From: a virus
DNA length: 17,898 nt
Reading direction: 5' to 3' (one strand)
Virus record (IMG/VR): IMGVR_UViG_3300035498_000693
Location: 1 to 17,898 of that record
Shown here: positions 13,009-13,402 of the stretch, piece after piece
Layout of the letters: each line of letters opens with the position of its first letter
How positions within the stretch are numbered: position 1 is the stretch's first letter
Position numbers and translations under genes: made by a program
The notes under the pieces: generated by a model
What the model was told of the DNA's origin: nothing
Databases searched by the model: none
The model's input: only the letters and a program-made list of their open reading frames with translations

Positions 13009-13402
13009 ATGTTATTAAAAGATAAATTTAAAATGGGAGATATAGTTAAACTTAGAAATGGTGAAATCTGTATTGTATTTCCTGATAGTACCATTGAAGG
13101 AATTGGTCTTTATAGATTTCAAAAAAAATAGTTTTAGATTTGCTAAGCATGTTGATGAATATGATGAAACTTTAAATTCTAAAAAAGAATCTAAATTTGA
13201 TATAGTTGCTTTTTATAAAAGTCCAACTTCATATCAGACAGTTTTGAGAGATACTATAAATTATTTAATTCAAGGAAGAATAGATGAAATAAGTATCCCT
13301 TGGGATTGGAAAAGAGAAAAGCCTATAAAAGAAATGACAATAGAAGAAATTGAAAAGACATTAGGATATAAAATAAAAATTGTGAATAAAAAGGAGGACT
13401 AA
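13009..13402 (+). CDS. Hypothetical protein split by a +1 frameshift at an A8 homopolymer (two ORF pieces, 13009..13131 and 13121..13402)
   Basis: ATG at 13009 with RBS AGGAGAG. Frame 1 reads MLLKDKFKMGDIVKLRNGEICIVFPDSTIEGIGLYRFQKK and then stops. Frame 2 continues KKNSFRFAKHVDEYDETLNSKKE...IVNKKED to a stop at 13402. The two frames overlap exactly at AAAAAAAA (13121-13128). The frame-2 piece has no RBS of its own. Confidence 0.5.

Follow-up and report, generated by a model that had tools for sequence, protein, structure and literature searches.

The window, that is, the whole stretch of 17,898 nt that was analysed, is phage DNA with a G+C content of 29.6%. It encodes a Thg1-like tRNA-His guanylyltransferase, an RNA ligase, an AAA_33 kinase, two phosphoesterases and an endolysin, together with two SPFH/Band-7 proteins, one of which has a major-vault-protein shoulder domain. 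Directly upstream of the RNA ligase gene lies a gene that is interrupted at a run of eight A's, hereafter A8 (Table 1). Its frame-0 segment carries the motif DIVKLRNGEI before the break and ends with the codons TTT CAA AAA AAA TAG. The +1 frame is open from 13058 to the TAA at 13400-13402, and the 91 residues that it contributes are counted from the AAT at 13127. The first-pass annotation had described this arrangement, and its coordinates, ribosome-binding site (RBS), ATG, A8, TAG and 91-codon second frame were all reproduced from the sequence. It had also stated that the second frame lacks an RBS. We confirmed this at ATG 13058, the sole start in that frame, for which no Shine-Dalgarno was found upstream.

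We then varied the length of the run in silico. Removal of one A, as had been proposed, does yield a continuous 130-aa ORF, and A10 yields one of 131 aa; A6 and A9 run into dead ends of 54 and 55 aa. A version of the A8 site in which the run is broken is AAGAAGAA.

Table 1. Features of the interrupted gene and its immediate surroundings (window coordinates).
Feature	Position	Strand	Basis or remark
Shine-Dalgarno AGGAGAG of the interrupted gene	12996..13002	+	6 nt 5′ of ATG 13009-13011; read from the sequence
5′ gene segment, frame 0, 40 codons (MLLKDKFKMGDIVKLRNGEICIVFPDSTIEGIGLYRFQKK) and TAG	13009..13131	+	N-terminal homology to P0002-P0005 and the wider family
ATG of the 114-aa ORF P0001 (gene-caller start)	13058..13060	+	No RBS; first 23 codons are an out-of-frame read-over of the real N-terminus
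5′ arm of the predicted 11-bp RNA stem	13062..13072	+	65-nt fold
3′ arm of the same stem, ending on the first A of A8	13111..13121	+	65-nt fold
A8 homopolymer, site of the frame change	13121..13128	+	Sequence; HMM matches in two frames
3′ gene segment, +1 frame, 91 codons (NSFRFAKHVDEY...KEMTIEEIEKTLGYKIKIVNKKED) and TAA	13127..13402	+	Homology covers the C-terminal two thirds of family members
TAG stop of frame 0, directly 3′ of A8	13129..13131	+	Sequence
GGAGG, own Shine-Dalgarno of the RNA ligase	13393..13397	+	8 nt 5′ of ATG 13406
RNA ligase gene (PHA02142 OB-fold and RNA_ligase domains)	13406..14599	+	Domain matches; neighbour, outside the interrupted gene

On comparative grounds, 13009-13402 is a single gene and not two. 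With the fused 130-aa sequence as a query, we found four full-length relatives encoded by single ORFs (P0002-P0005; 130-141 aa, 34-40% identity), whose alignments span 92-98% of the query. When 1.84 billion representative proteins were searched with a profile, 822 relatives were returned. Among the best 150 of these, nearly all match profile positions ~7-130 within one protein, and the only fragments are the window's own P0001 and P0074, and P0032. The earlier view that the two ORFs are halves of one gene thus agrees with the full-length homologues. The opposite situation, in which homologues would always carry the halves as separate genes, was looked for among them and does not hold.

The position of the break was located by a six-frame HMM scan. 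The N-terminal block of the family is found in frame 0 up to 13113 (E=2e-11), and the next two blocks are found in the +1 frame from 13139 (E=1e-8 and 2e-15), the block KEMTIEEIEKxLGYKIKIV being located after the break. Since the blocks switch frame between 13113 and 13139, the frame change is confined to 13114-13138, with A8 inside this interval. An alignment of the fused sequence with 40 family members extends from end to end and shows T110 and G119 to be invariant. The sequence fits both the N-terminal block of the family, DIVKLR(N/D)G...GL...Y..DL...DI(V/I)AV, and the C-terminal one, W.W...KEMT..EIEK.LG.K.KIV, and unites them, as members of the family do, in one polypeptide within the range of ~110-145 aa.

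The family is composed of widespread, uncharacterised small phage proteins of ~120-140 aa, each of which combines an N-terminal SH3-like beta-barrel with a C-terminal KEMTxxEIEKxLGYKIKIV motif. Pfam has no family for this protein, and PHROG gave only a weak match, to the C-terminal motif (phrog_13516). The AlphaFold2 model of the fused protein (mean pLDDT 77.7) shows a five-stranded SH3-like barrel, with predicted strands at residues 12-15, 20-26, 31-38, 41-47 and 65-69, followed by helices and the C-terminal motif. In this model, codon 40 falls in the turn between strands 3 and 4, that is, in a beta-hairpin inside the predicted barrel. As the break sits between these two predicted strands, the 40-aa frame-0 product, which holds three of the five barrel strands, would be an incomplete domain.

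The C-terminal motif is also found outside this family. Indeed, this ~20-aa stretch (KEMTIEEIEKxLGYKVKIV; window 13310-13390) is nearly invariant and occurs behind a large variety of unrelated N-terminal domains in dozens of phage contigs, of which many measure 130-175 kb. The loci that share it are L007-L029 and L046-L105 (match near position 1501 or 6001), and the profile search of IMG/VR returned mostly proteins that have only this motif in common. It resembles a portable C-terminal module or tag.

Other readings of the two frames were considered and rejected. Two separate genes are ruled out by the single-ORF homologues, by the lack of an RBS or a start of its own in the second half and by the position of the break inside a domain; these same features, with the downstream part devoid of an independent start, are those by which a pseudogene is recognised. 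Reassignment of the stop codon or read-through of the TAG is ruled out as well, frame 0 meeting a TAG and a TAA within five codons after the TAG. Read-through is further excluded because homology continues in the +1 frame and not in frame 0. No extra stop or indel was found in the 91 downstream codons, which are open and keep the family motifs. We estimate from base frequencies that a random sequence of the same composition would be open over 91 codons with p ~2e-4. As this part of the gene is undecayed, either the lesion is recent or the frame is still used.

Very probably, A8 is genuine and reflects the DNA of a single clonal phage population. Three further contigs carry it, one from Logan (L001, SRR11792607, 2113 nt) and two from JGI (L002, 3300035495, 1372 nt; L003, 3300035499, 922 nt). 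They are 100% identical to the window over their entire length and none of them terminates at A8. Moreover, exact look-ups in ~15 billion proteins recovered only A8-derived products, those of A6, A7, A9 and A10 being absent. P0001, which is encoded on all three contigs, requires A8 or a run that differs from it by a multiple of three bases. This evidence consists of assembled contigs, and as the four are identical and probably come from one project (two or three libraries at least, two assembly pipelines), they effectively sample one clone.

None of the 17 other runs of at least 7 bases in the window breaks an ORF: they lie within intact ORFs or between genes, and the T8 at 1907 is located inside the unbroken minus-strand ORF 1269-2108. 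The assembly thus shows no general homopolymer problem. Four runs reach at least 8 bases, namely A8 at 5278, 8783 and 13121 and the T8 at 1907. For A runs of at least 8 bases, the three observed compare with ~8.8 expected under a first-order Markov model, a depletion that is compatible with selection against slippery tracts. Under the same model, 2.3 T runs of at least 8 bases are expected and one is observed; the window has no run of at least 9 bases and no G or C run of at least 6.

The run itself is not conserved. An A-run, a Lys-run or a frame change at the aligned site was found in none of the homologues, which have a variable loop at this position (for example GLSLNDDSLSC, AIYSPKHSVC or GIFSLEAGGC). 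The programmed +1 frameshift put forward in the first-pass annotation is thus unsupported by conservation. It had also suggested that homologous phages be compared for A7 and A8; those homologues for which DNA is available are single ORFs with no A-run at the site. Diverged homologues share neither the run nor the two-frame layout, A8 being common only to the 100%-identical copies. Relatives at 40-99% identity were absent from all the collections searched: no close relative was detected in INPHARED by blastn or tblastn, a single-protein query of IMG/VR and GTDB genomes returned nothing close, and the protein database held only the identical allele and relatives of at most 40% identity.

A second member of the family is broken, in another lineage. 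On contig L030 (ENA ERZ27317403 k141_935767), the sequence at 1439-1446 is TG-T8-GG, and a T7 would have kept the frame. Two codons after the T8, frame 0 comes to a stop, and homology resumes in the +1 frame. This break lies at ~codon 57, hence at another position than A8, and L030 is ~93% identical to the intact P0002 gene (compared with L004 1435-1827). The contig is short, was assembled with MEGAHIT and is probably of low coverage. We read this break as a sporadic homopolymer indel, real or erroneous, in a fast-evolving family, and not as evidence for a shared signal.

We also looked for signals that could promote recoding. Upstream of the run, an 11-bp RNA stem is predicted within a 65-nt fold of -16.1 kcal/mol (z=-2.25), which ranks in the top 2.4% of all windows of this size in the contig. 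When the upstream folds of the 18 plus-strand runs of 7 bases or more are compared, it comes second in stability, and first if only runs inside coding sequence are considered. The stem is AU-rich, encloses a 38-nt loop and belongs to a segment that was picked after the fold was seen, and the equivalent 110-nt segments of intact homologues reach -15.7 to -18.7 kcal/mol, compared with -19.1 kcal/mol here. No stimulatory RNA structure was detected downstream of the run (171-nt fold, z=-0.9), nor an RF2-type internal Shine-Dalgarno, the upstream GGTCTTTATAGATTTC having no GGAGG- or AGGGGG-like element.

The junction nonetheless has the RF2-type order of a shift-prone P-site codon followed by a stop (AAA AAA TAG), at which tRNA re-pairing is imperfect in +1 (AAU) and perfect in -2. 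It also has the make-up of a slippage site, with an A homopolymer of at least ~7 bases at the junction of frames that encode one homologous protein. Only the +1 frame would be productive, and it could be entered through an A7 or A10 transcript, a -2 ribosomal shift or a +1 shift at the UAG pause. A -1 ribosomal frameshift was rejected, as it leads to a 55-aa dead end.

Stable hairpins are found directly before two other runs of the window, both intergenic: the T7 at 7153 (window ~7120-7160; -13.9 kcal/mol) and the A7 at 14645 (window ~14600-14651; -20.2 kcal/mol, ~20-bp stem). They are likely to be intrinsic terminators, and the one before the A7 may serve the opposite strand or both directions.

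The first-pass annotation considered the gene to be probably co-translated with the RNA ligase, and its state to be of possible importance for the operon. Our results do not support this proposal: the ligase has its own GGAGG, and no linkage to a ligase is seen for the homologues of the interrupted gene. These are located among small early or replication genes and have no ligase neighbour. Many ~145-kb phages carry an RNA ligase that is ~70% identical, and in three sister phages the gene upstream of the ligase encodes an HD_4 protein, a 58-aa ORF product and a protein with repeated helix-rich units, all of them unrelated to the gene studied here. A functional link to the RNA ligase was rejected on the basis of the gene neighbourhoods of the homologues. 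As judged from these neighbourhoods, the interrupted gene is a variable accessory gene and not a conserved partner of the ligase, and ligase expression is unlikely to depend on its state.

The surroundings of the gene call for some additional observations. Relatives of the ligase at ~70% identity occur on thousands of metagenomic contigs, many of which are ~145-kb phage genomes with Thg1 and NAD-salvage genes in addition (L107). In the window, a dispersed RNA/tRNA repair set (3708-4424, 7887-8759, 13406-14599, 15076-15582 and 15597-16181) comprises the Thg1-like tRNA-His guanylyltransferase, the RNA ligase, an AAA_33/KTI12-like kinase and the two phosphoesterases. Between the ligase and the kinase, 14700-15083 encodes a 127-aa Cys-rich protein that matches phrog_1257 (‘ribosome associated inhibitor A; zinc finger domain’); sister phages have different small genes at this place, for a VG64-like and an HPr-like protein. 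Band-7 and vault-shoulder proteins are unusual cargo for a phage. Those of the window are an 818-aa protein that joins a major-vault-protein shoulder to SPFH/Band-7 (10030-12486) and a 507-aa flotillin-like Band-7 protein (5596-7119); a 531-aa Band-7 protein is encoded on a distantly related contig that carries a homologue of the interrupted gene (L004 4737-6332). Finally, the family of the interrupted gene includes tandem paralogues, on L032 (1953-2381 and 2391-2798) and also on L019 (2744-3605) and L031 (2957-3461), L019 encoding one polypeptide with a duplicated N-domain and no C-terminal motif. These paralogues are compatible with an accessory family in rapid turnover.

Among the explanations for the broken frame, a recent plain frameshift mutation, which was absent from the three options initially listed, is the most likely. 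The full account that we favour, and consider probable without being assured, is that a dispensable accessory gene has recently acquired a real +1A mutation by replication slippage, and that transcriptional slippage provides a leaky rescue. The ancestral A7 would have become A8 through the insertion of one base in the poly-A run, with replication slippage as the likely cause. Standard decoding would then produce the 40-aa fragment, presumably inactive. The lesion would be tolerated because the gene is a variable accessory gene, and it would be recent since the 91 downstream codons show no further decay. The dispensability of the gene, as read from gene context, is supported by the homologues that lack a ligase neighbour, by the tandem paralogues and by the unrelated upstream genes of the sister phages. 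The T8 break of L030 agrees with sporadic homopolymer indels. In this account, the existence of one gene, the place where it is broken, the recurrence of A8 and its lack of conservation are shown by the data, and the origin by mutation, the inactive fragment and the leaky rescue are inferred.

The break is probably also leaky. RNA polymerase slips on A/T runs of such length, which would generate a minority of A7 or A10 transcripts and, from these, the full-length protein of 130 or 131 aa. The gene would therefore be strongly attenuated and not fully dead. By analogy with known cases, such a rescue is plausible. On plain A/T runs genome-wide, bacterial RNA polymerases mostly insert and less often delete (PMC5574713). 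Because the deletion needed here is the rarer outcome, unaided rescue may be very weak. Several facts weigh against the recent-mutation account as a whole: a stop right after the run and an 11-bp stem ending at the run also occur at programmed sites, the four A8 contigs represent about one clone and no fixation across independent lineages, and the intact 91-codon frame fits continued expression as well as it fits a recent mutation.

That the site is instead programmed, through a hairpin-assisted transcriptional slippage resembling that of IS1447 with A8 as a selected throttle of expression, appears unlikely to us. According to this proposal, the nascent stem would form with RNA polymerase on the T8 template, the hybrid would be shortened to rA:dT and realign forward, and a set fraction of mRNAs would be A7 and direct synthesis of the 130-aa protein, the rest giving the 40-aa peptide. 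The length of the run is inside the A7-A9 range that is sufficient in IS1447, with which the locus shares the +1 frame, an upstream ORF that closes with the run (A9T in IS1447) and an adjoining stem-loop that takes in bases of the run (PMC6211511). In the IS630 element of Roseiflexus, moreover, a hairpin that is 5′-adjacent to the motif leads to a 1-nt deletion (PMC5009743). The stability of the stem that ends on the first A, the stop codon right after A8, the variable loop in which an extra Lys would be tolerable and the overall depletion of runs of at least 8 bases in the contig all agree with a selected signal. However, the run and the frame change occur in no homologue, and the collections searched contain no diverged relative of the A8 allele for comparison. 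Furthermore, the AU-rich stem with its long loop comes from a segment chosen post hoc, intact homologues fold about equally, the 40-aa product is an incomplete domain of no obvious use, and the break of L030 at another position looks like noise more than design. In its boldest form, the proposal holds that A8 and the abutting stem are a selected hairpin-assisted slippage signal in a non-transposon gene of a lytic phage, which fixes a low ratio of SH3-like protein to 40-aa peptide, and that the T8 of L030 is an independent case; we regard this as rather doubtful.

The remaining explanations fare less well. A sequencing or assembly artefact, which would imply a genome with A7 and an unbroken 130-aa gene, had been listed from the outset and is disfavoured by our data, to the point of being improbable. 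Homopolymers are admittedly classic sites of indel errors, low coverage is suggested by the small size of the three extra contigs (0.9-2.1 kb), all contigs may derive from one project with the Logan run reusing reads of one JGI sample, and in L030, a MEGAHIT contig of low coverage, a gene is similarly broken at a T8. Nevertheless, four assemblies, which draw on two pipelines and on two or three libraries at least, agree on A8 at 100% identity, the A7 product is absent from the proteins looked up, and the 17 other runs that break no ORF speak against a systematic homopolymer problem. An 8-base run is also well within short-read accuracy. Phase variation, the remaining option of the first-pass annotation, would make the A-tract a contingency locus that is ON as A7 or A10 and OFF as A8 at the DNA level. 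It is true that a non-essential gene has the homopolymer in its coding sequence, that slippage of A/T runs during replication can be reversed, and that a second family member is broken at a T8; but no polymorphism of tract length was seen, A8 being present in all four contigs (a thin sampling, of one clone) with other tract lengths unrecorded, the contigs assemble through the run unbroken and the homologues have no tract at the site. Eight A's are, in addition, short for a high-rate phase switch, and we give this option only a small chance. A programmed ribosomal frameshift at AAA AAA UAG seems very improbable. Peptidyl-tRNA-Lys would re-pair in -2 (AAA) or +1 (AAU) during the pause at UAG, in line with the RF2-like logic of a slippery Lys codon in the P site and a stop in the A site, and re-pairing in -2 would be perfect. 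Yet the site is not conserved, the upstream internal Shine-Dalgarno stimulator and a significant downstream structure are both absent, and the usual -1 shift on A-runs would end in the dead end mentioned above.

For annotation purposes, 13009-13402 is best recorded as a single frameshifted gene that belongs to a large and uncharacterised phage family. The misannotation to be avoided is that of a 114-aa hypothetical protein (P0001), whose N-terminus is spurious, next to a 59-aa ORF (P0074). With a recent mutation, the biology would be ordinary, in that a phage would have lost or attenuated a dispensable accessory gene at a mutational hot spot. If stem-dependent slippage were true and efficient, it would extend transcriptional recoding of the IS type to phage accessory genes, and it would also urge caution before homopolymer-broken genes of AT-rich phages are called pseudogenes.

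Among known systems, the closest in layout is IS1447 from the Firmicute Clostridium thermocellum, an IS3-family element of the orfA-A9T-orfB type, together with the IS1447-like elements of Firmicutes. In IS1447, an A9T run at the end of orfA is adjacent to a stem-loop, and 9 of 52 cDNAs (~17%) lack one A, which produces the +1-frame fusion; A7 suffices, and runs of A7 to A9 are active (PMC6211511). In both loci, the upstream frame closes with an A-run of 7-9 bases, the downstream part is in the +1 frame, a transcript that has lost one A joins the two frames, a predicted stem-loop adjoins the run and takes in its first base or bases, and the host background is AT-rich. For IS1447, conservation of the run and of the layout extends over 34 elements, and the slippage is a measured one (PMC6211511). 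The phage site is unconserved and has single ORFs as relatives, slippage at it is hypothetical, and its upstream product is a broken domain and not a functional OrfA. The Roseiflexus IS630 element offers a second parallel, as a hairpin 5′-adjacent to its slippage motif drives a 1-nt deletion (PMC5009743): in both cases a nascent RNA stem would lie directly 5′ of the motif and the productive event would be the deletion of one nucleotide. The IS630 hairpin is compact, with a GC-rich 6-bp stem, a tetraloop and a U5C5 motif, whereas that of the phage is an AU-rich long-range stem with a 38-nt loop before a plain A8.

Ribosomal systems are more remote. The phage gene resembles prfB (RF2) in having a shift-prone codon followed by an in-frame stop and a product that continues in the +1 frame, but it differs by the lack of an internal Shine-Dalgarno and of conservation, and by its slippery codon, AAA instead of CUU. 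With the G/GT genes of phage tail-assembly chaperones it has in common two overlapping frames of a phage gene and a slippery, heptamer-like run. However, G/GT uses a -1 shift, occupies a strongly conserved position between the tail-tube and tape-measure genes and yields two functional products, while the gene described here is not a tail gene, needs +1 and is unconserved.

The comparison that suits a recent mutation is with genes rescued by slippage, such as tssM1 of Citrobacter rodentium (A11; PMC4256274), the poly(A) pseudogenes of Buchnera and Blochmannia and the thymidine kinase gene of herpes simplex virus (G7+1; PMC5009743), and with the concept of compensatory frameshifting at ‘savior’ indels (PMC5009743). 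In tssM1 the run is longer, the frame is restored by insertions and both products are needed (PMC4256274); the A8 tract of the phage is shorter than that of tssM1 and would need a deletion or a +2 insertion. Like them, the phage gene is truncated at a homopolymer directly before a stop, has full-length relatives, and may give rise to a minority of full-length product.
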